Assembly: GCA_934148535.1 (NCBI GenBank)
Contig: CAKPDF010000001.1
Coordinates: 27,025 to 91,024, forward strand
DNA: 64,000 nt
DNA from: an uncultured Bacilli bacterium
GTDB taxonomy: Bacteria > Bacillota_I > Bacilli_A > RF39 > UBA660
Direction: 5' to 3'
Shown here piece by piece: positions 7,746 through 24,709 of this stretch; position 1 is the first letter of the stretch, and the number at the start of each line of letters is the position of its first letter. Below the pieces are notes generated by a model that saw nothing but the letters and a program-made list of their open reading frames with translations, did no database searches and had not been told where the DNA came from. A program made the translations under genes and the position numbers.

Positions 7746-8846
7746 TTACTTGAATTTATAATAAAATAGTAAATTTGTAGATGGTAATTCATATTTATCA
7801 CTATCTTCATTATTAATATATTTTTTTACATTTTCTTCAGATAATGCATCATTATAAACTAAAACATCCTTAACTGTAATTTTACTAAGACCATTAACAC
7901 TACCATCAGCATCTGGATTACCCCCTACAACTATTGGAGTACTGCTTTTTTTAACTTTACCAGTAAAATCTGCTTCAGCTGAATAATCATTTATATATAA
8001 CTTCATCTTTCCTTTATCATAAACTCCCACTATACTATACCAAGTGTTAGCAGTTACTTTGATTGTAGATTTAGTTTGCTTATATCCACCATCTACGTAT
8101 AATTCGTAAAATATAGTATTATTGGTTGTTTTTACTAGACCGCCACCTGCTGATTCCCAATTTCCAATTATATGTTGTTGCCCATCTGAATTTAAATCAT
8201 TAAATTTAACTTTTATCATAATAGTAATTTTATCATTAAAGTCATAATTATTTAAACCACAATTAACATAAGAATTATTTCCACTAAAAAAGGCCCCATC
8301 AGTATCAGTAGTAACATTATTCTTAAAGCCAATATTCCCTCTTTCTGAATAATCAAATACCATATTATCACTAGTAAATTCTATAGCATAAGGAATAAAT
8401 AGTTTTATACTATAATCTTCATCATTATAAATATTTGTAATTGGAATAACTATAGAAGTATACTTGCTATTAGAAGTAAAGGCCATATCTCCTATTTCTA
8501 AAGTATTACCCATATTTTTTGTATAATTATTATATGTTATATCTTTGGTAGTATTATTTATCGTCAATTTCCTTGTATAGTTTTTTAAATCGTGTTCATC
8601 CCAATAAGTAAAGGTTACTACGTTATTATCTTTTTCTACTTTAGTTAGAGTATAATTATTAATATCTTCCATTATTTTATTTGTTATAATGTTTTTATTA
8701 TTAGTAAATGTTATAGACTTGTAAATATCTTCATCAGTTCTACTAAAAGAAATAGTAAGTCTAACTAAAAAGAATGCAATTCCCATAGCAAGTACTGATG
8801 CAACAATTATCTCTACTATTAAATAACCTTTTCTATTTAATTTCAT
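7746..8846 (-). CDS. prepilin-type N-terminal cleavage/methylation-domain protein (large minor pilin/pseudopilin) with a C-terminal LamG/concanavalin-like domain
   Basis: Start reassigned to the ATG at 8846, which has an AGGTGAT RBS. Leader MKLNRKG, then YLIVEIIVASVLAMGIA (Gly at -1, Glu at +5, hydrophobic helix). The C-terminus shows a LamG-like pattern (..GKVKKSSTPIVVGGNPDADGS..). Confidence 0.5.
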   Translation of the reverse strand: MKLNRKGYLIVEIIVASVLAMGIAFFLVRLTISFSRTDEDIYKSITFTNNKNIITNKIMEDINNYTLTKVEKDNNVVTFTYWDEHDLKNYTRKLTINNTTKDITYNNYTKNMGNTLEIGDMAFTSNSKYTSIVIPITNIYNDEDYSIKLFIPYAIEFTSDNMVFDYSERGNIGFKNNVTTDTDGAFFSGNNSYVNCGLNNYDFNDKITIMIKVKFNDLNSDGQQHIIGNWESAGGGLVKTTNNTIFYELYVDGGYKQTKSTIKVTANTWYSIVGVYDKGKMKLYINDYSAEADFTGKVKKSSTPIVVGGNPDADGSVNGLSKITVKDVLVYNDALSEENVKKYINNEDSDKYELPSTNLLFYYKFK

Positions 8847-8853
8847 ATACATA

Positions 8854-9429
8854 TCACCTAATCCTATAATAACCAAAATATTGATAATCACCATTTTCTA
8901 ATTCTACAATAATAATATAATTAAATTTTTGTTTTTCTTCATCTATCTCATCTTTCTCCGCGAAATTTAAAGAAGTATTCAAATAATCAAGATAATCTTT
9001 AAATCTAACATCAAAACCAGAAACATTACTATTATCTTTATTTACTGCATTAACATTATAAGGAAATATTATTGCATTCTTTATATTATATGTATCTATT
9101 AATCCATCACAAATATTTTTTTCTATATCATTACATTTTGTTCCTTCTTCTGTCTCTTCTATTATTTTATAATTCCTAGAAGCAACCGGCTCACTATCTT
9201 GTTTTTCTATCTTTTTCAAAGCCTCGACAAATTTATCAGAAGAAACCAAATATTTATAAATACTCTCACCAGCATAGACAGCGTCTACATTATAATAATA
9301 ACTTCTTTCTGTATAAACGATATACATTTTATTAAATATAGTATAAAGTCCTACTAAAGTACCCAAAATAACAGTAGAAACAATAATAACCTCAGCCATC
9401 ATAAAACCTTTACAATTTAATTTTATCAT
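8854..9429 (-). CDS. prepilin-type pseudopilin (minor pilin-like)
   Basis: Start reassigned to the ATG at 9429 (RBS AAGGTGTG); the longer track ORF would overlap the divergent ATPase gene. Leader MIKLNCKG, then FMMAEVIIVSTVILGTLVGL (class III signal, Glu at +5). Confidence 0.5.
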   Translation of the reverse strand: MIKLNCKGFMMAEVIIVSTVILGTLVGLYTIFNKMYIVYTERSYYYNVDAVYAGESIYKYLVSSDKFVEALKKIEKQDSEPVASRNYKIIEETEEGTKCNDIEKNICDGLIDTYNIKNAIIFPYNVNAVNKDNSNVSGFDVRFKDYLDYLNTSLNFAEKDEIDEEKQKFNYIIIVELENGDYQYFGYYRIR

Positions 9430-9516: not shown

Positions 9517-10845
9517 ATGGATAACAATACAGAAAAAAAAGTTATAAATCCAATGGAAGCAATAAATAACAACAAACAAAGTCCTAACGATCAAAATCTA
9601 CAGCAAGAAAACATAGATACCACAAATTTCAATGCTCTTGCTAAAGAAAAAAATGATTATAACTTTGAAACAACCCCAATAGTGGATATAGTAAACGATA
9701 TATTAATAACTGCTACTAAAAAGGGAGCTAGTGATATACACTTTGATCCCGCTATTGATTGTTTAAAAGTAAGACTTAGGATAGATGGAATATTAAATAC
9801 ATATTTAAAAATTCCAAATGATGTTAAGCAAAATTTAACTGCTAGAATAAAGATTTTAGCAGGAATGAATATAACGGAAACAAGATTACCACAAGATGGT
9901 GCTATAAAAACTACTATAGATGGATTAAAGTTAGATATGCGTGTATCTACTCTACCTACTAAAAAAGGTGAAAAAATAGTTATAAGAATTATGGACTACT
10001 CTATGAGTTTACAAGGTATTGAAACATTATGTTTTAGTACTTCAAATTATAAAAAAGTATTAAAAATGATTAGTGTTCCCAACGGTATTGTTTTGGTAAC
10101 AGGCGCTACTGGTAGTGGTAAATCAACTACAGTTTATTCAATACTTCAGAGATTAAATACAGAAGAGACTAATATAATAACAGTAGAAGATCCAGTTGAA
10201 ATGGAAATGGAAGGCATTAATCAAATCCAAGTTAATAGTGAAATAGGGTTGGACTTTGCTACTGTATTAAGAAGTATTTTAAGGCAAGACCCTAATATTA
10301 TAATGATAGGCGAAATTCGTGATAGTGAAACAGCTAGAATAGCTGTAAGAGCCTCTATTACAGGTCACTTAGTATTATCTACAATACACACTAACAATTC
10401 TTTAAGTACAATAGAAAGATTATTAGATATGGATGTAGAAAGATATTTATTAGCAAGTGCTTTAGAGGGGATAATATCTCAAAAACTAGCAAGGAAATTA
10501 TGCGATAAATGTAGGAAATTAAGGCCTACTACTCAATTTGAAAAGCAATTATTTAAAATAGTATTAGGATTAGATGTTAATCAAATATATGATGCTGTTG
10601 GTTGTGAACATTGTATTGATGGATATCATGGTCGTGTTGCTATTCAAGAAGTATTATCAATTAATCAAGAAGTAAGAGATGCTATAAGTAATAATTTAAG
10701 GAAAGATGCTTTGAGAAAATTAGTATATACTAAGGATACTACAACAATGTTACAAGATGGATTATATAAAGTTTTAGCAGGATTTACAACAATGACAGAA
10801 TTATTAAAATTAGTTGAAATAGATGATTTAAATATACAAAAATAG
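9517..10845 (+). CDS. GspE/PilB/ComGA-family type IV pilus/T2SS assembly ATPase
   Basis: Walker A GATGSGKSTT, the GEIRD box, His box LVLSTIHTNN, and tetracysteine CDKC...CEHC. It has no long N-terminal GSPII_E_N domain, so it is ComGA-like in size. Confidence 0.85.
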   Translation: MDNNTEKKVINPMEAINNNKQSPNDQNLQQENIDTTNFNALAKEKNDYNFETTPIVDIVNDILITATKKGASDIHFDPAIDCLKVRLRIDGILNTYLKIPNDVKQNLTARIKILAGMNITETRLPQDGAIKTTIDGLKLDMRVSTLPTKKGEKIVIRIMDYSMSLQGIETLCFSTSNYKKVLKMISVPNGIVLVTGATGSGKSTTVYSILQRLNTEETNIITVEDPVEMEMEGINQIQVNSEIGLDFATVLRSILRQDPNIIMIGEIRDSETARIAVRASITGHLVLSTIHTNNSLSTIERLLDMDVERYLLASALEGIISQKLARKLCDKCRKLRPTTQFEKQLFKIVLGLDVNQIYDAVGCEHCIDGYHGRVAIQEVLSINQEVRDAISNNLRKDALRKLVYTKDTTTMLQDGLYKVLAGFTTMTELLKLVEIDDLNIQK

Positions 10846-16173: not shown

Positions 16174-17226
16174 TTATTTACTATGTTTATTAAAATTATA
16201 TTTTTGTTTAAAATTAATTTTAGTTATTATTTTTGATATTAAAAATAAAAATAATATGTTTATTAATAAATATGTGGTTACATATATTAATATATTTAAT
16301 ATTTTTTGAAAATTTCCTATTAAGTTTAGGTTAAATATTTTTTTTAAAATATTTATATTTGTTAATTCAAAATATATTTTTATTATTAATATTGCTACTA
16401 CTGGTAATAGTACATTTATTATTTGTTTTTGCTTATGACTAATTGAAATCAATAAAATTGACATTAATAAAATTATTAACAAAATTATAATAATATTATA
16501 TTTATTATCGTATGAAAAATATTTTAGTATTTCTGGGATTATTATACTAGTTAAATATATTGAGGATAATGTTATCTTTTTTTGAATATTTTTAGTTTTT
16601 ACTATTATTAATGATATAAATATTAATAACAATATATTTACATAATTAAAACTCTGTTCTATTCCTAATAGCATTGCAGTTGTGGATACATCTATATCTT
16701 TGCTATTTATTACATTCATAATTTTAAAGTTAGTATTTTTTTGTTGATATTCTTCTAAGGTTGGGATTTTTTTGTTTACATCTTCTAATACTTCTTTATT
16801 ACCATTTAGTATATTATCTTTTTGATATTCATTATAATATTTTTTATAATAATTTAATGTTACTACTATTTTGGGTAGAGTTTTTTCTTGCGAGTATCCT
16901 GTGTATACTTCACTTCCTATTATTGTTATTGGTACTGCATTCATTGTTATTTTATATTTATTTTTTATTTCTGTAATTATTTCTTCATTTTTTTCATCTG
17001 ATATTTCATATTTATAAACTTTTATATTTTTATATTGTTTTTCTAATTTCTTTAAATCTTTGATTTCTTCTTTACAATGTGGGCAAGTGTTTGAATGAAT
17101 TAAATAAATATTTATTTGATTATTTTTATAATCTTCTGCGTAAACTTTTGGTACTACTGATAAAAGGAATATTAATAATATTATTTTTAAAATATTATTT
17201 ACTTTAATGTCAATTTTTTGTAACAT
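16174..17226 (-). CDS. secreted thioredoxin-fold (CxxC) protein anchored by a C-terminal multi-TM domain
   Basis: Signal peptide, then a thioredoxin-like domain with the CPHC motif (SNTCPHCKEE), then several hydrophobic helices that contain no cysteines. Confidence 0.5.
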   Translation of the reverse strand: MLQKIDIKVNNILKIILLIFLLSVVPKVYAEDYKNNQINIYLIHSNTCPHCKEEIKDLKKLEKQYKNIKVYKYEISDEKNEEIITEIKNKYKITMNAVPITIIGSEVYTGYSQEKTLPKIVVTLNYYKKYYNEYQKDNILNGNKEVLEDVNKKIPTLEEYQQKNTNFKIMNVINSKDIDVSTTAMLLGIEQSFNYVNILLLIFISLIIVKTKNIQKKITLSSIYLTSIIIPEILKYFSYDNKYNIIIILLIILLMSILLISISHKQKQIINVLLPVVAILIIKIYFELTNINILKKIFNLNLIGNFQKILNILIYVTTYLLINILFLFLISKIITKINFKQKYNFNKHSK

Positions 17227-18323
17227 TCGTCGAAAGTTTTTGTAAATTCTTCTATTTCTTTTTCAGTAGTTAAATATGATAGACTTATTCTTAGGCTAGT
17301 GCTAGCATAATCTTTATTTTTAGTGACGCTATAAACTGATTCTGACATTGTATTTGCTTTTGAACAAGCACTTTTGGTTGATATATATATGTTTTTTTCA
17401 TCTAGAGCATGAACAAATGTCTCTGGTTTTATATCTTTAATACTAAAATTTATTACATATGGTATAGATTTTTCTGTGCTATTGATATGAACCTTGGAAT
17501 ACTTTGTTAAATTATCTTTAACAAGATCATTTAGAATTTTTACTTTATTATAGTTTTCTTCTACTTTAGGTATTATTAATTCTAAGGCTTTCATCATTGA
17601 TACGATTAATGGTAACGCTGGGGTTCCACTTCTGTATACTGTTGTACTTTTTCCTCCATGAATTAATGGATCAATTTCAATATTTTCTTTTTTGTATAAT
17701 AAGCCTATTCCTTTAAAGCCATATATTTTATGAGCGGAAATACTTGCTAAGTCTACTTTTGATAGATCAATATTTATTTTTCCTATTGCTTGAGTACAGT
17801 CTACATGTAAGTAACATTTGGGATAGCATTTAACTATATGAGATATTTTTTCTATTGGTTGCTTTATACCTAATTCACTATCTACAGCACAGATACTTAC
17901 TAATAGGGTGTTATCATTTATTAATTGCTTTAAGTGTTCTAGGTCTACTTCACCATTTTCTAAAATATTTACGTAGTCTACTACAAATCCATTTTCGGTT
18001 AGATATTTTACTGTTTCTGTTATTGATGAGTGTTCTAATTTAGTTGTTATTATATGGTTTGCTCTTTTTTTATATTTAAAACATATTCCTTTTAAGGCTT
18101 GGTTATTTGATTCACTTGCACCTGATGTGTATATTATTTCAGTAGGTTTTACTTTTAATAATTTTGCTATTTTATTAGTAGCATATTCTTCTAATTCTTT
18201 AGATTTAATTCCTAGGCTATGTAATGAATTACTATTAGCATAGTATTCTCTTGCAACTTTGTTATATACTTCTATTACTTTTTCATCTGGTTTGGTTGTT
18301 GCTGAATAATCTAAATATATCAT
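17199..18323 (-). CDS. cysteine desulfurase (class V aminotransferase, NifS/IscS-like)
   Basis: PLP-lysine motif SAHKIYGFKGIGLLY and overall NifS-like sequence. ATG at 18323 has a GAGGTGAT RBS. Confidence 0.85.
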   Translation of the reverse strand: MIYLDYSATTKPDEKVIEVYNKVAREYYANSNSLHSLGIKSKELEEYATNKIAKLLKVKPTEIIYTSGASESNNQALKGICFKYKKRANHIITTKLEHSSITETVKYLTENGFVVDYVNILENGEVDLEHLKQLINDNTLLVSICAVDSELGIKQPIEKISHIVKCYPKCYLHVDCTQAIGKINIDLSKVDLASISAHKIYGFKGIGLLYKKENIEIDPLIHGGKSTTVYRSGTPALPLIVSMMKALELIIPKVEENYNKVKILNDLVKDNLTKYSKVHINSTEKSIPYVINFSIKDIKPETFVHALDEKNIYISTKSACSKANTMSESVYSVTKNKDYASTSLRISLSYLTTEKEIEEFTKTFDECYKKLTLK

Positions 18324-18402
18324 AATAAAAATCACCTCGTTCTAGTTATATTTTATCATATTATAGATAAAATTACTAGTTCTAGGTGATTTTATATTTT
18401 TC

Positions 18403-20049
18403 TTAACTTAGAACAATTCTAAATGTAGTATCTGTCTGAGGGTTACCATCATAGTATGAGGTTTTAAATATATTAGCGTCTTTTTCTGTGTTGGTAGCTC
18501 CTGCTGTTATCCATAATTGTTCTGTAGTTATGTCTGTTATTTCTTCTTGATATTGTATCCATCCTAATTGGTTGGTACTATTAAATACATCATAATATTT
18601 TGAATCTATTTCGTCTAAGAAACTTATATTATTTTTATTTGTTAACATTATTAATTCTTGGGCACCACCTGCCATATCATATACTCCATATATATTTCCT
18701 GTAGTTGATCCTACTATAGTTCTGTCAAATTCATCGGTAGGCAAACCATTTTCATCTAATTTTTGACCAATGTATGAATATTCTCCATAGTCTAAGATTT
18801 TATCTGTGTGTCCCATAGATGATCCGGTGTTATAATATGTACTGTTGTTTGCATAAACTTTTCTACAACCATTTTTAGCACCATTGCATATTCCATAAGT
18901 GCTGTTAGTTAGATATGCTACTGCACTCCATTCTGACATTTTTATAGGATGAGAATCTGTTTTTTCGTCTTGGGTATTTGCTGTGCTTTCAAATATTTTT
19001 GAAGTGTCATATGCAATTTGGGGAGTGATATAAGTTAAAGCGCTGAAATTAGGTAATATTGTTGGATTATCTGTTACTCCTGTTGTTTCAAACTTTCCTA
19101 TCCAAAATCCTGTTAATTCTTTGTCGCCTAATTTGAATGATGGATGTGTATAATAGTCATTGTTGTTGCCATCACATTTTTGATCAGTGCAAACTATTGT
19201 TCCTGTACTTTGAGTTCCTTTTTCGAATACTATATTTATTCCATTTTCTATAGCATTATAACTATAATTATTTTCATCATTTGTCTGATTTATATCCCAT
19301 ACTTGATATTTAAATCTTGGTATCCAAACTAAATATGCTGTTATATCTTCTGAATTGACTATATCTCCGTTTTCTAGTTGTTGATTTTTTTCTAGACTGT
19401 CTTTAGTTACTAGAGCAACATTAGCCCATTTTTTATTTTCATAATTGTACCATTCATAGTTATCGTTTGTGTTTGTTTTATCGGCTTTATGCCAATAGTT
19501 ATCGTTTTCATCAAAATATATTGGTATCATTGTAGATAATAGTTTTGGTACATTGGCACCGCTTGTATCTAGATTTGTGTTTGCTATATTTTTAATATTT
19601 AATGTTTTGGTTATTATTTTTTTGCCTTCTGGTATTATTAGAGCTCCACCATTTATGTATCCGGTTATTACAGATAGGTTTACCGTTATAGTATTATCTG
19701 TATCATTATTTATTATTATTGATACTATTTTATTAGTTTTACCTTCTATTGTATCTTCTGCTTTATTTTGGCTTGTATCAGAGATACCTATATTTAATTC
19801 TGTTTCTGTACTATAAGCAATTGCATAATTTAATGGCTTTTCATATGGATTATTTACATTTATATCTATTGTTTTTGTTTCTTTTGAGGATATTTTTATT
19901 TCTTGTGATTTAGTACTATCTAATATAAAATTGTAGTCTGCTTGATTATCATTGTTGCCATTATCTATTAGAGCAAATGTTGTATATAAACTTGCTACTA
20001 CTACCATTATAATCAATAGCATTAATAGCATTATTCTGTTTTTTTTCAT
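18403..20049 (-). CDS. secreted protein with a SipW-cognate-like signal peptide, a TasA/camelysin-like N-domain and a C-terminal FGE/SUMF1-like domain
   Basis: N-terminus MKKNRIMLLMLLIIMVVVASLYTTFALIDN (compare GGTFAFFSD / GGTWAAFND of SipW substrates). C-terminal motifs GFWIGKFETT, HPIKMSEWSAVAY and GVYDMAGGAQE resemble FGE-sulfatase domain motifs. Several Cys pairs. Confidence 0.5.
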   Translation of the reverse strand: MKKNRIMLLMLLIIMVVVASLYTTFALIDNGNNDNQADYNFILDSTKSQEIKISSKETKTIDINVNNPYEKPLNYAIAYSTETELNIGISDTSQNKAEDTIEGKTNKIVSIIINNDTDNTITVNLSVITGYINGGALIIPEGKKIITKTLNIKNIANTNLDTSGANVPKLLSTMIPIYFDENDNYWHKADKTNTNDNYEWYNYENKKWANVALVTKDSLEKNQQLENGDIVNSEDITAYLVWIPRFKYQVWDINQTNDENNYSYNAIENGINIVFEKGTQSTGTIVCTDQKCDGNNNDYYTHPSFKLGDKELTGFWIGKFETTGVTDNPTILPNFSALTYITPQIAYDTSKIFESTANTQDEKTDSHPIKMSEWSAVAYLTNSTYGICNGAKNGCRKVYANNSTYYNTGSSMGHTDKILDYGEYSYIGQKLDENGLPTDEFDRTIVGSTTGNIYGVYDMAGGAQELIMLTNKNNISFLDEIDSKYYDVFNSTNQLGWIQYQEEITDITTEQLWITAGATNTEKDANIFKTSYYDGNPQTDTTFRIVLS

Positions 20050-20065
20050 GGCTATATCCTCCTTT

Positions 20066-21292
20066 TTATTTTAATATATATGGGGTATCTTGAGTTCCGT
20101 TTCCTTTTATTATATAATTTTCTTCTTTTAATACTATTACTGGTCTTACTTCTAAGTTTGTAGTTGCATCATTATCTATTTTAATACTACCATCTTCTGT
20201 TATTGACATAGTGTATAGATTATTGTTTATATCGTTTAATGTCAATAATAATGTGCCTGGTTTAGTCATCCATGATGTGTTGCAAGTATTTTCTTCTTTA
20301 CAATAAAGTGTGTTTATATAATCTGTAATACTTGGTAATGAGATATTAGTTTCGAAAGTATTTGTAATAGTTATTTGTGATTCTTTGAAATTTTCTTTAT
20401 TTTCTATAGATGTTGTTTCATTATTTACTGTTTGCATATCTAATAGTGATATTGTTTCTTTTGTTAATCCTGTATTAGTGAAATTACATTCTTTTTCAAG
20501 ATTATCTTGATAGCAAGTTCCTTTTGCACTTTTATAATATAATTCATTTAATAAATTGTTTATTTTAGAGTTTTGATAATACTTTAGATTATTATCATAT
20601 TGGTAATTACCTATACTGTTTTCTTTAATTAATTTTAACTTATTGTTATATACTCCTATTATTTGCCACATTTCTTGGTTTATTATTATATGATTATTTG
20701 GATTTGCTCCGTAGTATAATAAGTTTTTATTTTTATCATAGTATAATTCAGTGCTATCTTCTGTATATAGATTAGTAATAAACTCTGCTGCAGTTTGATT
20801 TCTTATGTCTTTTCTTTCAATTTCTTCTGATACCAATATTCTATTTCCATTGATATTTAGCGATGTATCTTCTGATGTTGCTACTCCTAATTTTATTGTA
20901 GCTTTTTTTTGTGAATTATTTATTATTACTATTGTTATATTTCTTGTTTCATTATTGTTAATTATATCTACAGTTGGATATTTTGAGTCATCTAATTTAT
21001 ATGCATATATATCATTGTTATTTGTATTTATTTTTTCTATCCATACTCCATAATATAGTGATGTATTTTGACTATTTGTTAAATTTATACTTAATATTTT
21101 ATAATTATTTGGTTCTACTGTAGTTATTTGATATTCTTCTATACTAGTATCTACTGAGATAGATGTGTCTATTGATACTATATTGTTTGTATCTATTTCT
21201 GCTTCAAACATTGCATATGTGGAATATATGGCTAGACTGAATAAACTTACTACTATTAATAGCATTAAATAACTTTGTTTAAATTTACTCAT
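20066..21292 (-). CDS. secreted protein, paralogous N-domain to the downstream gene, SipW-cognate-like signal peptide
   Basis: N-terminus MSKFKQSYLMLLIVVSLFSLAIYSTYAMFEAE. Region NITIVIINNSQKKATIKLGVATS is similar to NKIVSIIINNDTDNTITVNLSVITG of the neighbour. RBS AGAGGTGGA. Confidence 0.45.
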   Translation of the reverse strand: MSKFKQSYLMLLIVVSLFSLAIYSTYAMFEAEIDTNNIVSIDTSISVDTSIEEYQITTVEPNNYKILSINLTNSQNTSLYYGVWIEKINTNNNDIYAYKLDDSKYPTVDIINNNETRNITIVIINNSQKKATIKLGVATSEDTSLNINGNRILVSEEIERKDIRNQTAAEFITNLYTEDSTELYYDKNKNLLYYGANPNNHIIINQEMWQIIGVYNNKLKLIKENSIGNYQYDNNLKYYQNSKINNLLNELYYKSAKGTCYQDNLEKECNFTNTGLTKETISLLDMQTVNNETTSIENKENFKESQITITNTFETNISLPSITDYINTLYCKEENTCNTSWMTKPGTLLLTLNDINNNLYTMSITEDGSIKIDNDATTNLEVRPVIVLKEENYIIKGNGTQDTPYILK

Positions 21293-21439
21293 TATCCACC
21301 TCTTTTCTACTCTACCTTGCTATCATAATAATAACATAATTACTACTTTTTTACAAGTAATTGATTTAATTATTTTTAAAATATTTTATGTGAATCCGCT
21401 TTATATTTGTTAGACATTTAAGCGGTACTTCTTACTTTT

Positions 21440-21476
21440 GAAAAAGAAAAAAGAAAGAAGTTATTTTCTAACTTCT
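21440..21476 (-). terminator. rho-independent terminator after the yqeY-like gene
   Basis: Minus-strand hairpin AGAAGTT-AGAAAAT-AACTTCT followed by a T-rich run. Confidence 0.5.
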
Positions 21477-21479
21477 CTG

Positions 21480-21938
21480 CTATAAATTCTCTAATTTACT
21501 TTTAATTATTTTATTAACTTCACCCATGTCGGCTTTACCTTTTAATTTTGGGCTTATTTCTTTCATTATTAATCCCATTTGTTTTTGACTAGTAGGATTA
21601 ATCTTAGAAAATGCTTCTTCAATAATTTCATTTATTTCACTTTCTGATAGTTGTTCTGGCATATATGCATTTAAAACATCTATTTCTTTTTGATTTTGTT
21701 CTGCCAAATCAGTTCTTCCAGCTTTATTAAATTCATTTATTGAATCTTTACGCATTTTTATTTGCTTCGATATAACGTCTACTACTTCTTCATCTGACAA
21801 TTCATGTTTAAGATTTATTTTTGACAATTGGATTGCTCCTTTTACCATTCTAATTACTCCTAATTTAAAATTATCTTTTTCTTTCATAGCGTTCTTTATA
21901 TCTTCATTTATTTTTTCATTTAAATTCATTATAATCAC
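21480..21938 (-). CDS. yqeY: GatB/YqeY domain protein
   Basis: Typical YqeY sequence. It sits downstream of rpsU, as in many Firmicutes. Confidence 0.8.
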   Translation of the reverse strand: MIIMNLNEKINEDIKNAMKEKDNFKLGVIRMVKGAIQLSKINLKHELSDEEVVDVISKQIKMRKDSINEFNKAGRTDLAEQNQKEIDVLNAYMPEQLSESEINEIIEEAFSKINPTSQKQMGLIMKEISPKLKGKADMGEVNKIIKSKLENL

Positions 21939-22241: not shown

Positions 22242-22406
22242 TTATATTTTACAGTAAGAGTCAGTTGTTGCTCTTCTTATTACATTACCAAGTGCTTGTC
22301 CTAAAGTAAATAGCGTTGATATTGCTTTAACTATTGCATTTATTGTCGTTGTAGATGAAGCACCTCCTTCTATATTTTTTAATTTTTCTATTGATAGTTC
22401 TTTCAT
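22242..22406 (-). CDS. double-glycine-leader bacteriocin-like prepeptide (54 aa)
   Basis: Not in the ORF track. MKELSIEKLKNIEGG|ASSTTTINAIVKAISTLFTLGQALGNVIRRATTDSYCKI. It has a 15-aa GG leader, a GxxxG motif in the mature part, and an AAAGGAAGAAAAGGT RBS. Confidence 0.6.
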   Translation of the reverse strand: MKELSIEKLKNIEGGASSTTTINAIVKAISTLFTLGQALGNVIRRATTDSYCKI

Positions 22407-22424
22407 ACCTTTTCTTCCTTTCGT

Positions 22425-22565
22425 TTAACTGTTGCATTTTTTGGGGTTCACTAAGCCGTCTACTACTCCTATTAAGAATGAGATAGCTCCTGTTGCAATT
22501 GTTACTACTAACCAATTTACTCCTCCTTCTATTTTTTTCATTTCTTTTTTATTTAATTTTTTCAT
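22425..22565 (-). CDS. double-glycine-leader bacteriocin-like prepeptide (46 aa)
   Basis: Not in the ORF track. MKKLNKKEMKKIEGG|VNWLVVTIATGAISFLIGVVDGLVNPKKCNS. It has a GG leader, a GxxxG motif (GVVDG), and a GAAGGGGAG RBS. An alternative in-frame start gives a 7-aa leader MKKIEGG. Confidence 0.55.
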   Translation of the reverse strand: MKKLNKKEMKKIEGGVNWLVVTIATGAISFLIGVVDGLVNPKKCNS

Positions 22566-22630
22566 ATCTCCCCTTCTTTCAGACATTATCTTAATAATAT
22601 TTACATTTTGCTTAGAAATATCTATATTAA

Positions 22631-24709
22631 TTAATAATAATTTTTCTTTTTTAGATTTTCTATTATTCTTCCATCTTCAATTTTAATAACTTGATTATAT
22701 AAATCCATATTTTCTGTTCTATGTGATGTTACTATTATGGTTTTATTAGGATATTTATTAAAAATATTTTTTAATATTCTTCTTTCTAGGTTGATATCCA
22801 TTTCATTTAATCCTTCATCTATGATCAAAATATTTGATGGTTTTAGCAATGATCTTGCTAAAATTATTTTTTGTTTTTGTCCTCCTGAAATGTTTGCTCC
22901 ATTTTCTTCAATAAGCGTATCATATCCTAAGTATAATTCAGATACAATATCATTTACGTAAGTTAATTTGCAAATTTCATTAAAATCTTTACTGTTAATA
23001 TTTCTATTTAGTATTATGTTGTTTTTTATTGTATCTGTATATATAATTTCATTTTGAGAAATATATGTTATTTCTTTTCTAATATTACTAATTGGAATTT
23101 TATTTAAGTCATGATTCCCATATGTAATACAATTGTCTTTTATTTTATAATATTTACATAATATTTTTAATAATGTACTTTTACCAGAGCCAGTTGAACC
23201 TAAAACAAGTACTTTGGAATTATTTGTAATAGTTAAGTTTAAGTTGTTTAATACTTTTTTATTGGGATAGTTAAAAGATAAATTTTTTATTACTATATTT
23301 CCATTAATACTAATTTTATCTTCTTTTGTTAAATTTTCTGTTTCTACTTCAAATATGTTATTGGCTCTTTTTAGAGCATTTATTGCATAGTAATAATTTT
23401 TATTCAGATCAATTATATTTTTTATAGGATTTATAAAATATACCAAAAGTGCATTAAATGTTATTATCTTTTCTAGTTTTATTTGATTGTTTTGTAACAT
23501 TAGAAAGCCAATATAATTAATTATTATTATTCCTAATGCTGTTATAAATTCTTTTAAAAATAATTCAATATTATTCAAGTTTTCCGTTTCTGTGACAATT
23601 TTTGTTAATTTATTATATTTTTTTTGAAATATTTTATATCTATTACTTTCCAAATTTAATCCTTTAATTGTTTCAAATCCTGAAATTGATTCTACTAAGT
23701 AAGAGTTAACTTTAGAATTTTGTTCTTGAACTAGATTTATTCTTTTCTTTGCTAGTGGTTTAAATATATTGAAAATTACAATGTAGTTCAAAATAATTAT
23801 TATTAAAATTATAAACATTTTGGAACTAGTATTATATAATATTATTCCAGATGATATAGAAATAATTGCATCTAATAGTACAGTGAGTATTATTTGATTT
23901 AACATTATTTTTATATATGTTAAATCATTAATTCTTGATAAAATATCACCAGTTGTTTTATTTTTATAATAATTATAAGGAAGTAAAAGTGTTTTTTGGA
24001 AAGCTTTTGTTATTAGAGAGCAATCTATTTTTTGATCTAATTTTATTACTAATCTATTTCTTATGTAATTTGATAAGCATTTTATTGTAATTATTATTGT
24101 AAATATTAAGGTTATGACTTTTAAATTTTTGGCATTTATTCCATATTTTATTAAAATTTCTAAATAATAAGCATATATACAAGAAACAGCAGTAAATATT
24201 ATTGAAAATATTATGATATTTATAACAAAGATTTTATTTGATTTTATTATTTTCAATATTACTTGATTCAAGTAATTTGGTACTTTTATATTTGGTAATT
24301 TTCGATATGGACTAAATTCCATTATATTTCCAGTCCAAATTTTTATGAAATCTTTTATACTTAGATTTAATCTGCCTATAGATGGGTCCATTATTTCTAC
24401 TTTTTTATTTGATATTCTGTATATTACTACAAAATGCAATAAGCCATCATTATCTGTCTGACATAATAATGGAGGACTTAGATTATTTATGTCTTCTATT
24501 TTTGATAGATAATATGCTTTTGTAGATAACCCTATTCTATTTGCTGCTACACTAATATTATAAAAATTAGTACCATTAATAGTTGTAGATGTCATTTTTT
24601 CTAATTCATTTAATGGATAATTTCCTTTATGGTATTTTATTATTGATAATAAGCATGCAGCTCCGCAGCTTTTATTATTTGTTTGCAATACAATTAAATT
24701 TTTTTTCAT
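22631..24709 (-). CDS. bacteriocin/peptide ABC exporter with an N-terminal C39 peptidase domain (LagD/ComA/SunT family)
   Basis: C39 motifs QTNNKSCGAACLLSII and LLHFVVIY, a six-TM ABC exporter domain, Walker A GSTGSGKST, and signature LSGGQKQKIILARSL. RBS GAGGAGG. Confidence 0.9.
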   Translation of the reverse strand: MKKNLIVLQTNNKSCGAACLLSIIKYHKGNYPLNELEKMTSTTINGTNFYNISVAANRIGLSTKAYYLSKIEDINNLSPPLLCQTDNDGLLHFVVIYRISNKKVEIMDPSIGRLNLSIKDFIKIWTGNIMEFSPYRKLPNIKVPNYLNQVILKIIKSNKIFVINIIIFSIIFTAVSCIYAYYLEILIKYGINAKNLKVITLIFTIIITIKCLSNYIRNRLVIKLDQKIDCSLITKAFQKTLLLPYNYYKNKTTGDILSRINDLTYIKIMLNQIILTVLLDAIISISSGIILYNTSSKMFIILIIIILNYIVIFNIFKPLAKKRINLVQEQNSKVNSYLVESISGFETIKGLNLESNRYKIFQKKYNKLTKIVTETENLNNIELFLKEFITALGIIIINYIGFLMLQNNQIKLEKIITFNALLVYFINPIKNIIDLNKNYYYAINALKRANNIFEVETENLTKEDKISINGNIVIKNLSFNYPNKKVLNNLNLTITNNSKVLVLGSTGSGKSTLLKILCKYYKIKDNCITYGNHDLNKIPISNIRKEITYISQNEIIYTDTIKNNIILNRNINSKDFNEICKLTYVNDIVSELYLGYDTLIEENGANISGGQKQKIILARSLLKPSNILIIDEGLNEMDINLERRILKNIFNKYPNKTIIVTSHRTENMDLYNQVIKIEDGRIIENLKKKNYY

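Follow-up and report, generated by a model that had tools for sequence, protein, structure and literature searches.

Two consecutive genes of an uncultured low-GC gut bacterium, here called A and B, probably encode a pair of exported ligand-binding proteins, surface-located or secreted, each composed of a leader, a stalk and a lectin-like head, with B being of fixed specificity and the NifS-like and Trx-TM genes downstream constituting a separate pair. Our analysis covers a 64-kb window, i.e., the whole stretch of DNA presented above, with the rest of the genome lying outside. The features described in the first-pass annotation are present and, according to the ORF list, map without exception to the minus strand, while its interpretation as a whole is supported in part. 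Coordinates are collected in Table 1.

Table 1. Features of the A/B locus in the 64-kb window.
Feature	Position	Strand	Evidence
End of yqeY, then terminator-like hairpin with U-run and second hairpin (CCGCUU...AAGCGG)	21385..21482	-	RNA fold, sequence
Promoter-like site and RBS (AGAGGTGG) 5' of gene A	21293..21356	-	consensus scan, sequence
Gene A, 408 aa: leader, beta-sandwich, C-type-lectin-like (DUF6273-like) head	20066..21292	-	ORF, AlphaFold, orthologues
Gene A leader, aa 1-27	21212..21292	-	leader HMM, alignment
Gene A 8-stranded beta-sandwich 'stalk', aa about 40-160	20813..21175	-	
Gene A C-terminal head, aa 168-408, conserved Cys pairs	20069..20791	-	
Gene B, 548 aa: leader, beta-sandwich, C-type-lectin/FGE-fold head	18403..20049	-	ORF, AlphaFold, homologues
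Gene B leader, aa 1-26	19972..20049	-	sequence, leader HMM
Gene B beta-sandwich, aa 37-150	19600..19941	-	AlphaFold model; hhalign to A family
Gene B C-type-lectin/FGE-sulfatase-superfamily head, aa 160-548	18406..19572	-	
Gene B segment equivalent to DGR variable region, aa 505-548, WITAGATNTEKDANIFKTSYYDGNPQTDTTFRIVLS	18406..18537	-	alignment to VRs of DGR-targeted homologues
NifS/IscS-like cysteine desulfurase (class-V aminotransferase)	17199..18323	-	Pfam Aminotran_5, E 2.6e-67
Trx-TM, 350 aa: CPHC thioredoxin/glutaredoxin-like domain and about 5 TM segments	16174..17226	-	sub-threshold thioredoxin-fold matches, synteny

The four genes follow each other in the order A, B, NifS-like, Trx-TM; the first-pass annotation had placed the thioredoxin before the desulfurase. 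Upstream of A, the hairpin region folds with -20.4 kcal/mol (z = -3.6 against shuffles), and its terminator-like hairpin sets rpsU-yqeY apart from gene A. A putative promoter of gene A is suggested by a consensus match (TTGTAA, 17 nt, TG-TATTAT at 21356..21328). Gene B starts 16 nt behind the stop of gene A and has a strong RBS (AAGGAGG). A and B probably are a co-transcribed tandem pair.

The N-terminal modules of A and B are paralogous. The pairwise BLASTP alignment is not significant (26% identity, E 6.4), but at the profile level residues 5-162 of A align with residues 4-150 of B at 98.2% probability (hhalign, E 3.8e-14). AlphaFold models, proposed as a check along with the first description of the locus and built for both proteins (pLDDT 83 for A, 87.9 for B), reveal the same 8-strand sandwich, in good agreement with the shared N-terminal domain that had been read from the sequence. 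The N-termini are MSKFKQSYLMLLIVVSLFSLAIYSTYAMFEAE in A and MKKNRIMLLMLLIIMVVVASLYTTFALIDNG in B. In A, a basic n-region and a hydrophobic helix lead to Y-S-T-Y-A, followed by M-F, and this leader scores 49 bits against an HMM derived from the leaders of 139 family representatives. The leader of B, which ends in L-Y-T-T-F-A followed by L-I-D (B-family consensus L..TYA), is a weaker version of the A type and scores 7.9 bits.

With residues 1-165 of A, phmmer returned 273 cluster representatives of 84-1461 aa, in each of which the match lies at the very N-terminus. The leader follows the pattern K..YLL.LIV.GL.SL..Y-S-T-Y-A-[ML]-F-T and its motif is near-invariant, with T-Y-A reaching 90% conservation or more and F never varying (alignment A4). 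Behind it follow passenger domains of the kind usually seen in surface proteins, with ALK_LTK_GRD in 23 of 69 and, besides, Laminin_G_3, InlB-type repeats and SpaA-like domains. Within the window, no ORF other than A and B has this type of leader.

Many members of the B family, including most of the DGR-targeted ones, carry prepilin N-termini (KGFTLIELL) in place of the leader and sandwich, joined to the same type of head at the same point. These type IV pilin- or pseudopilin-fused lectin heads belong to the same protein family as B but differ in the N-terminus. The prepilin motif G/[FY]-T-L-[IL]-E (N_methyl, PF07963) is absent from A and B, which, lacking this cleavage and methylation motif, are not substrates of a prepilin peptidase. 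Elsewhere in the window the motif occurs in the ORF at 7746..8894, and a T2SSE ATPase and a prepilin-like Laminin_G_3 protein are also encoded.

The head of A is a decorated C-type-lectin-like domain, DUF6273-like and resembling the N-terminal domain of the IgA peptidase (IgAse) of Thomasclavelia ramosa (9qa6), with which it shares the fold, yet at 14-17% identity. In IgAse this decorated C-type-lectin-like domain is not needed for catalysis (PMC12237041). Unlike the T. ramosa protein, A has no peptidase domain. At the sequence level no PDB match to the head was found, and A reaches no Pfam model at E up to 0.1, DUF6273 included, whereas PF19789 (DUF6273) is carried by its distant homologues P0183 and P0184, both of which match the C-terminal half of A. 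Orthologues of A share 44-100% identity with it.

Gene B has more than 5000 homologues and belongs to a cellular, not a phage-borne family (at least 551 genome loci versus 2 viral loci). No Pfam family covers the protein, and a B-family profile search of the PDB returned TaqVP as the sole match. The cysteine pairs pointed out in the first-pass annotation are well kept in the family, C287/C292 at 90% conservation or more and C388/C395 invariantly. Of the FGE/SUMF1 domain claimed for B, the fold stands: the motifs resembling FGE sit in a genuine match to the FGE/C-type-lectin superfamily fold, which B has in common with the FGE family (PF03781; SUMF1/SUMF2, PvdO, EgtB). An enzymatic role of B is not supported. 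The Pfam FGE-sulfatase model (PF03781) does not match gene B at E up to 0.1, nor is it annotated in more than 100 B homologues; moreover, the last cysteine of B is C395, so that the catalytic Cys pair, located in the C-terminal segment of FGE, appears to be absent. On these two grounds B was rejected as an FGE enzyme; in contrast to that family, it would be an exported, lectin-like and non-enzymatic protein.

TaqVP (5vf4), TvpA (2y3c) and Mtd (1yu0) have a C-type-lectin-fold head and a VR scaffold in common with B; they are not known to carry an N-terminal leader and sandwich as found in B. At the C-terminus of B (residues 505-548), the scaffold W..RGG..AG.F....G......R aligns with real VRs. 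Eight loci with B homologues (L009, L010, L017, L037, L039, L041, L071, and L077) contain VR/TR pairs of 116-155 nt and 76-93% identity, with RT and Avd present in seven of these; bAvd and RVT_1 RT were confirmed. Mismatches fall on TR adenines in 15/15, 10/10, 16/16, 16/17 and 16/17 cases in five loci and in 19/21 in L009, while L037 (18/26) and L010 (19/31) are more mixed. In sister genomes, an Avd/RT cassette rewrites B homologues over their final 40-50 codons from an Asn-rich template repeat, and in the targeted homologue of L010 leader, sandwich and lectin head are arranged as in B of the window.

Gene B itself has kept the VR scaffold, but the segment is not diversified. Neither the window nor the orthologue loci contain a repeat copy of its 3' end; tblastn searches of the window for RT, Avd and a MutS_I-like ORF remained above E 0.7 throughout, and RT and Avd were not found in the orthologue loci either. 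Sixteen strain variants of B carry 0-24 substitutions, which are lineage-structured and scattered over the full length of the protein; residues 505-548 are not enriched in them. Given this ordinary strain variation and the lack of a template, RT and Avd nearby, we regard B as a protein of fixed specificity that, unlike DGR variable proteins, is not hypervariable. DGRs act on remote targets, and B would be an active one if a template repeat and RT outside the 64-kb window acted in trans; the targeting of the family, including a homologue of the same architecture, and the divergence of the VR-equivalent segment, the highest among B orthologues (27-41% identity versus 51-61% for the lectin core), could be read this way. 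We consider it extremely improbable in view of the strain variants and the missing DGR components, and also because the conserved R-G-G of the scaffold has decayed to T-A-G and the segment shows no enrichment in AAY codons (0.067 versus 0.115 overall).

The NifS-like and Trx-TM genes are a separate conserved gene pair, independent of A and B. For the former (ORF 17199..18335, probable ATG at 18323), the claim of a NifS-type desulfurase agrees with the Aminotran_5 match (Table 1); scores against the NifS and IscS models, 287-296 bits, stay below the equivalog cut-offs. Trx-TM consists of an N-terminal signal or anchor, the CPHC motif and about five C-terminal TM segments without Cys. Its matches to thioredoxin, AhpC and glutaredoxin models are all sub-cut-off (AhpC-TSA 22.6 versus 26 bits, YruB 23.2 versus 88.55), and some of its homologues carry PF00462 or PF01323. 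In three unrelated contexts (L087-L089), Trx-TM homologues of 26-37% identity always come after a NifS-like gene and without A or B, in two of the three beside an extra small thioredoxin. Conversely, at the 79 loci of distant B homologues, neither a NifS nor a Trx-TM homologue lies within 10 kb. The functional link of thioredoxin and desulfurase to A and B, put forward in the first-pass annotation, is not supported by either distribution.

A module of all four genes, in which the CPHC oxidoreductase introduces disulfides into A and B, or B acts as an FGE-type enzyme with the desulfurase in cysteine chemistry, or both, is accordingly very unlikely. Shared strand and adjacency are conserved in related species with A and B at 44-57% identity, but this synteny extends to rpsU and yqeY and hence reflects close relatedness only. 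The conserved Cys pairs of A and B and the CPHC motif, which is of DsbA type, would suit such a module, although the FGE part of it conflicts with the missing model match and the lack of Cys in the FGE catalytic region of B. The interval between B and NifS revealed no terminator-like site in the consensus scan; it does, however, span 79 nt and contain a -10-like element, as opposed to the 28-nt overlap of the NifS-like and Trx-TM genes.

We return to A and B as a probable ligand-binding pair on their own, members of a large, modular family in uncultured low-GC gut Bacilli. The leader (n-region, helix, Y-[ST]-T-[YF]-A, then [ML]-F-T) would direct Sec export and be cut after Ala by type I signal peptidase. 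The 8-stranded Ig-like beta-sandwich may serve as stalk or retention module, and the C-terminal binding head would be the interchangeable part. The head of B, with its C-type-lectin/FGE-sulfatase-superfamily fold of the kind employed by DGRs, would make the protein a lectin-like adhesin or receptor of fixed specificity and not an FGE enzyme. Export and cleavage of the leader are predicted from sequence, and the location at the surface and the binding of a ligand are putative too. An extracytoplasmic location is consistent with the short-range Cys pairs and with the faster evolution of A and B than of their neighbours, the identities among related species being 44-57% for A and B, 65-72% for NifS and 79-87% for YqeY. 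Against this reading stand the score of the B leader, 7.9 bits against the family model; the failure of A to reach any Pfam model; and the lack of an LPXTG-like anchor, which leaves surface retention after leader cleavage without an explanation.

Retention would be explained if the N-terminal helix were an uncleaved type II signal-anchor, with T-Y-A-x-F as an interface element and the sandwich spacing the head from the membrane. Neither a wall anchor like LPXTG nor another wall-sorting signal or a C-terminal anchor is recognisable in A and B; their models contain long continuous N-terminal helices (residues 3-22 and 2-27), and the prepilin N-termini with which the B family exchanges the module retain their helix. 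This alternative is nevertheless rather doubtful. Thr at -3 and Ala at -1 with invariant residues behind them have the look of a peptidase site, and such strict sequence conservation is rare in plain anchors. In addition, weak matches of the sandwich to the WxLIP peptidoglycan-binding domain in 9 of 29 related N-modules (best E 8.8e-4) indicate another possible route of retention after cleavage.

The leaders had been described as SipW-type signals, a claim that stands as motif likeness. The motif, T-[WFY]-A and then x-F after a hydrophobic core, is fitted by STYA/MF of A and resembles GTWA/AFND of TasA among the TasA/CalY/BsaA fibres; B has TTFA/LI, so that its +2 position is not aromatic. A match to the SipW-cognate model TIGR04088 (curated cut-off 19 bits) was not obtained with either N-terminus at E up to 10, whereas the TasA control scored 40.4 bits; the relative P0192 and an ORF of L037 reached a sub-threshold 10.3 and 14.9 bits. 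The model also misses two sipW-adjacent ORFs in L025 (E up to 0.01) and so may have poor sensitivity in this clade. The TasA/camelysin-like assignment was not borne out. Peptidase_M73 (PF12389) matches neither A nor B. Their sandwich is roughly half as large as TasA, bears no specific resemblance to it and does not adopt a TasA-like jelly-roll fold; once the leader is removed, its comparison with TasA-like N-modules (hhalign 7%) and with TasA is not significant either. Unlike A and B, TasA has no large lectin head attached. As stated in the first-pass annotation, there is no sipW in the window: searches for a signal peptidase I motif ORF, a SipW homologue and a TasA-like gene in the 64 kb were all negative.

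These results bear on the possibility that A and B are SipW/TasA-type fibre subunits, the leader being the cognate signal of an ER-type (SipW-like) peptidase encoded elsewhere, and a new N-terminal strand polymerising the sandwiches by donor-strand exchange, as in TasA, BsaA and archaeal Abp, into filaments with lectin heads. The segment following the leader is disordered in both models, and a leader near-invariant over about 270 clusters with unrelated passengers is typical of dedicated sorting signals, not of ordinary Sec signals. Moreover, Peptidase_M73 is matched by 3 of 29 related N-modules (best E 7.8e-9), the N-module profile weakly matches AbpX (E 0.014), and the type IV prepilin N-termini alternating with the module in the B family are themselves fibre-forming. 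The related MAG CAJKHY combines B homologues (L010, L025) with a SipW-type peptidase (L025; TIGR02228, 95.5 bits versus a cut-off of 51.85) that adjoins two TasA-like ORFs with 'ATFAWFTAT'; the family leader HMM, however, does not pick up these ORFs. Taking this together with the negative TIGR04088, window and sandwich comparisons, we judge fibre subunits of this type to be unlikely.

In the ligand-binding pair that we favour, A and B combine a common conserved leader and stalk with different lectin-like heads, and the head type of B is hypermutated by DGRs in relatives. A more far-reaching proposal, to which we give a low probability, is that leader and 8-stranded sandwich represent an undescribed Gram-positive sorting and assembly module, perhaps with SipW-like processing, polymerising or docking via the new N-terminal strand. 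If true, this sorting module would swap with type IV pilin N-termini and display exchangeable lectin heads, some of them DGR-diversified, and A and B would be two cargoes of a novel system by which uncultured gut Bacilli display surface fibres or adhesins.

The first-pass annotation was accurate in placing four genes on one strand, the minus strand, of this window of about 25% G+C. Their adjacency is correct as well, although the last two had been ordered loosely: the NifS/IscS-like desulfurase gene (NifS) precedes the gene of the thioredoxin-like membrane protein (Trx-TM), whose matches to thioredoxin, glutaredoxin and AhpC models all remain below threshold. Upstream of gene A lie a C39-ABC exporter, two small double-glycine peptides, rpsU and yqeY, and the four genes are followed by uppS and enolase. 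The interval between yqeY and A holds a terminator-like hairpin with a U-run and then a second hairpin (z = -3.6), and a promoter-like site and a ribosome binding site (RBS) stand ahead of A. A and B are separated by 16 nt carrying an AAGGAGG RBS, B and NifS by 79 nt containing a -10-like element, while NifS and Trx-TM overlap by 28 nt. An inverted repeat, AATCACCT ... AGGTGATT, extends across the B-NifS spacer with the NifS RBS inside one arm, and could serve RBS sequestration or as an operator. The class II bacteriocin-like locus upstream is kept in related species (L083, L085).

Features of the window, and of fetched genome loci of relatives (L0xx) where named
Feature	Position	Strand	Remarks
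Gene A	20066..21292	-	408 aa
Gene B	18403..20049	-	548 aa
VR-equivalent tail of B	18406..18537	-	compared with P0002-P0014
Inverted repeat, B-NifS spacer	18336..18402	-	
NifS/IscS-like class-V aminotransferase	17199..18335	-	probable ATG 18323; Aminotran_5 E 2.6e-67
Trx-TM	16174..17226	-	350 aa; N-terminal signal or anchor, CPHC motif, ~5 C-terminal TM segments
NifS + Trx-TM pair	16174..18323	-	also L087, L088, L089
Class II bacteriocin-like locus	22242..24709	-	
C39-peptidase ABC exporter	22631..24709	-	bacteriocin-like locus
Small double-glycine-leader ORF	22425..22586	-	...KKIEGG/VNWLVV...
Small double-glycine-leader ORF	22242..22406	-	...KNIEGG/ASSTTT...
Prepilin-like protein	7746..8894	-	...NRKG/YLIVEIIVA...; Laminin_G_3 domain
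T2SSE-family ATPase	9517..10845	+	PF00437 E 1e-122
tasA/sipW-like operon, L025	16973..19150		
DGR cassette region with MutS domain I-like ORF, L071	11572..13494		
DGR cassette region with MutS domain I-like ORF, L010	11994..14265		

A common N-terminal domain had been proposed for A and B. Pairwise BLASTP does not reveal it at a significant level (26% identity over 157 residues, E 6.4), whereas it emerges clearly once the profiles of both families are aligned to each other (98.2% probability, E 3.8e-14, A 5-162 against B 4-150). Confident AlphaFold models (pLDDT 83.2 for A and 87.9 for B) agree in layout: a helix leads through a disordered linker into the same sandwich of eight strands, and the C-terminal head follows, at residues 168-408 in A and 160-548 in B. 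With A residues 1-165 as query and an E limit of 0.001, phmmer retrieved 273 clusters from 1.84 billion representatives; every match begins within residues 1-26, and the proteins range from 84 to 1461 aa in length. The leader follows the consensus K..YLL.LIV.GL.SL..Y-S-T-Y-A-[ML]-F-T, in which T-Y-A is conserved to at least 90% and the F two residues past the Ala is invariant. Among the ORFs of the window this leader type is confined to A and B, which reach 49 and 7.9 bits, respectively, with the leader HMM; with so low a score, the B leader represents a divergent version. Passengers of the module are surface-protein domains, namely Laminin_G_3, InlB-type repeats, SpaA-like and Ig-like domains. 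A glycine-rich domain of the ALK/LTK type (PF12810, best E 1.8e-91), best known from animal receptor kinases, is fused to the module in 23 of 69 sampled proteins (P0270-P0361).

Is this leader a SipW-type signal, as the first-pass annotation held? In favor of the claim, the motif resembles that of TasA (GTWA/AFND), and a leader kept so strictly in front of unrelated passengers is what one expects of a dedicated sorting signal. On the other hand, both models named for checking this assignment were run on A and B with negative outcome: TIGR04088 did not match the isolated N-termini at E up to 10, while the TasA positive control scored 40.4 bits, and Peptidase_M73 matched neither protein. Further points in favor are that Peptidase_M73 does match three of 29 related N-modules (best E 7.8e-9) and that the N-module profile weakly matches the archaeal matrix protein AbpX (E 0.014), which has been treated together with TasA and archaeal bundling pili (10.64898/2026.01.04.697558). 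Also in favor, in L025, a locus from a metagenome-assembled genome (MAG) with several B homologues, we observed a tasA/sipW-like operon of two small ORFs with 'GATFAWFTATA...SGNL' signals followed by a signal peptidase, which scores 95.5 bits with TIGR02228, above the cut-off of 51.85; a B homologue located 7 kb away carries the leader 'YYTYAMFTANV'. With an E limit of 0.01, neither TIGR04088 nor Peptidase_M73 recognised the two sipW-adjacent ORFs. Curated models thus appear to miss the TasA-like ORFs of this clade, and since TIGR04088 fails on these ORFs, its negative result for A and B is weak evidence here.

The sandwich itself is a different matter. Compared without the leader, the profile of the window-type sandwich resembled neither the TasA-like N-modules (hhalign 7%) nor TasA, and by this comparison the sandwich is not a TasA domain. 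A global hhalign with the leader kept gave 96.8% and was discounted, as the score derives largely from the signal region. The leader HMM, run against all fetched ORFs, showed no link to the TasA-like ORFs of L025. That the window lacks sipW, as noted in the first pass, was confirmed: a regex scan detected no signal peptidase I motifs, and tblastn no SipW or TasA-like proteins. We read the leader as a probable cleavable signal with a dedicated function, acting in the manner of the SipW class, of which it is a candidate rather than an established member.

The C-terminal domain of B had been read as an FGE/SUMF1 domain. At the superfamily level this fold is right: structural matches of the B head include PvdO, TvpA, CarF, PorK, SUMF2, EgtB/OvoA and Mtd, followed by canonical C-type lectins, and from PDB sequences the B-family profile found TaqVP alone (E 0.013; HPAF...WIGKF...EWAAVA). 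An FGE-type enzymatic role is not supported. Pfam and NCBIfam searches with full-length A and B matched nothing relevant, and B has no cysteine past residue 395, whereas FGE carries its catalytic Cys pair in the C-terminal region that we take to be equivalent. A word-indexed search returned more than 5000 clusters of B homologues at 90% identity, nearly all of those listed being without a precomputed Pfam domain. A phage receptor-binding origin of the locus was considered and rejected, because the family is almost absent from viral contigs; with at least 551 loci in genomes against two viral ones, it is cellular.

The head of A appears to be of another kind. For A, 73 homologues were found, and the distant ones have the C-terminal 230 residues in common; DUF6273 is present in two of these, and a prepilin N-terminus in one, which NCBI names 'type II secretion system protein'. 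The A-family profile returned only noise from PDB sequences. By structure, the head matches the IgA peptidase of Thomasclavelia ramosa (9qa6), whose N-terminal domain is described as C-type-lectin-like with decorations; it is not needed for catalysis and resembles the C-terminal domain of Legionella Lcl, 8Q4E (PMC12237041). We infer that this domain accounts for the match, since it is C-type-lectin-like, since 8q4e, several C-type lectins and TvpA stand in the same match list, and since the peptidase otherwise consists of a metzincin catalytic domain and beta domains. On that reading, A and B both bear lectin-like heads of two different kinds.

Relatives of B were studied in species-representative genomes, from which 79 loci were taken; nearly all of these genomes are MAGs of uncultured gut 'Bacilli', Tenericutes or Mollicutes, and Clostridium sp. 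CAG:762 is represented too. Each genome contains several paralogues, and the relatives from the genome-contig scan all show at most 42% identity. In seven of 56 full-length homologues the last 116-155 nt are copied 100-700 nt downstream at 82-93% identity, and the mismatches fall mostly on adenines of the downstream copy. In five loci they do so almost without exception (15/15 in L039, 10/10 in L017, 16/16 in L077, 16/17 in both L071 and L041); L009 has 19/21, and L037 a more mixed 18/26. L010 is an eighth case, with 76% identity and 19/31. The downstream copies, the template repeats (TRs), encode Asn-rich strings, e.g., WFNRGGNYNNGANAGVFNSNNNNGNSNSNNSSRS. On the 3' side follow a 125-aa MutS domain I-like ORF (PF01624, E 1.8e-9), bAvd (PF22296, E 7.9e-19) and a reverse transcriptase (RVT_1, E 1e-16 to 1e-19); the L037 locus stops just past the TR, ahead of where such genes would lie. 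These are bona fide cassettes of diversity-generating retroelements (DGRs). The MutS domain I-like ORF sits between TR and bAvd in L071, L077, L039, L041, L017 and L010 and is missing from L009; to our knowledge, it is not a standard DGR accessory gene. Most DGR-targeted homologues have prepilin N-termini (KGFTLIELL), and that of L010 shows exactly the leader-sandwich-lectin architecture of B.

The B gene of the window, by comparison, is not diversified. Its 3' end has no repeat within the 64 kb and no TR in the orthologue loci either, and tblastn detected no homologue of RT, Avd or the MutS domain I-like ORF in the window. Residues 505-548 align to the scaffold of the variable region (VR), with W, G, A, F, G and R kept and R-G-G degraded; AAY codons are not enriched there. 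Sixteen strain variants differ at 0-24 positions, which are lineage-structured and distributed along the entire protein. The VR-equivalent tail is the most diverged segment among orthologues (27-41% identity vs. 51-61% for the lectin core), which fits a ligand-contact surface. The window genes represent a static, ordinary-looking instance of the family.

To read the two remaining genes with B as one module of FGE enzyme, thioredoxin and desulfurase is attractive, but the genomic distribution fails to support it. NifS and Trx-TM adjoin A/B solely in close relatives, whose synteny extends to rpsU, yqeY and the bacteriocin locus; neither lies within 10 kb in any of the 79 distant B loci. Trx-TM homologues (26-37% identity) occur in three unrelated neighborhoods, each directly 3' of a class-V aminotransferase gene and never with A/B-like genes. 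Since Trx-TM follows a NifS-like gene in these other contexts, the two constitute a conserved unit of their own. Trx-TM joins an exported CPHC thioredoxin-like domain to about five cysteine-free TM helices. The pair recurs in at least three other contexts, and in two of them an extra small thioredoxin (PF00085) is inserted between the genes. A general DsbA-like role of Trx-TM that also benefits A and B is possible; nothing points to a dedicated link.

A and B would be driven by their own promoter and sent out via Sec by the conserved leader. We would give about even odds that a type I signal peptidase, perhaps one of the SipW type from another part of the genome, then cuts behind T-Y-A or T-F-A. 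The sandwich may keep the head off the cell or retain it there; weak matches of a WxLIP peptidoglycan-binding domain to nine of 29 modules (best E 8.8e-4) hint at wall binding. The heads have lectin-type folds; their ligands would be, e.g., glycans or proteins from the host, from mucus or from other microbes. Conserved short-range cysteine pairs fit an oxidising extracytoplasmic location. Elsewhere in the window, a T2SSE-family ATPase gene adjoins that of the prepilin-like protein; this pair suggests a type IV pilus or pseudopilus displaying lectin domains, parallel to the prepilin-fused B homologues.

Surface proteins of C-type-lectin fold are well known, and so are DGR targets. Pilin-type domains bearing VRs are mentioned only in passing in surveys (PMC11661182), and type V pilus adhesins of Bacteroides are diversified by DGRs (10.1101/2024.11.15.621889). 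Neither Pfam nor NCBIfam nor the literature searched yielded the leader-sandwich module, its exchange for prepilin N-termini in front of the same head, or the family itself. The interpretation given in the first-pass annotation is partly supported. A large unannotated family obtains a fold and a likely role, that of lectin-like surface heads in uncultured gut Bacilli, some of them hypermutated by DGRs, and the conserved leader may represent a dedicated signal of a new class, a proposal concrete enough to be tested. The occurrence of one head type on either a prepilin N-terminus or the leader-sandwich module suggests that these little-known gut bacteria have two alternative systems for displaying proteins that bind the host or glycans.
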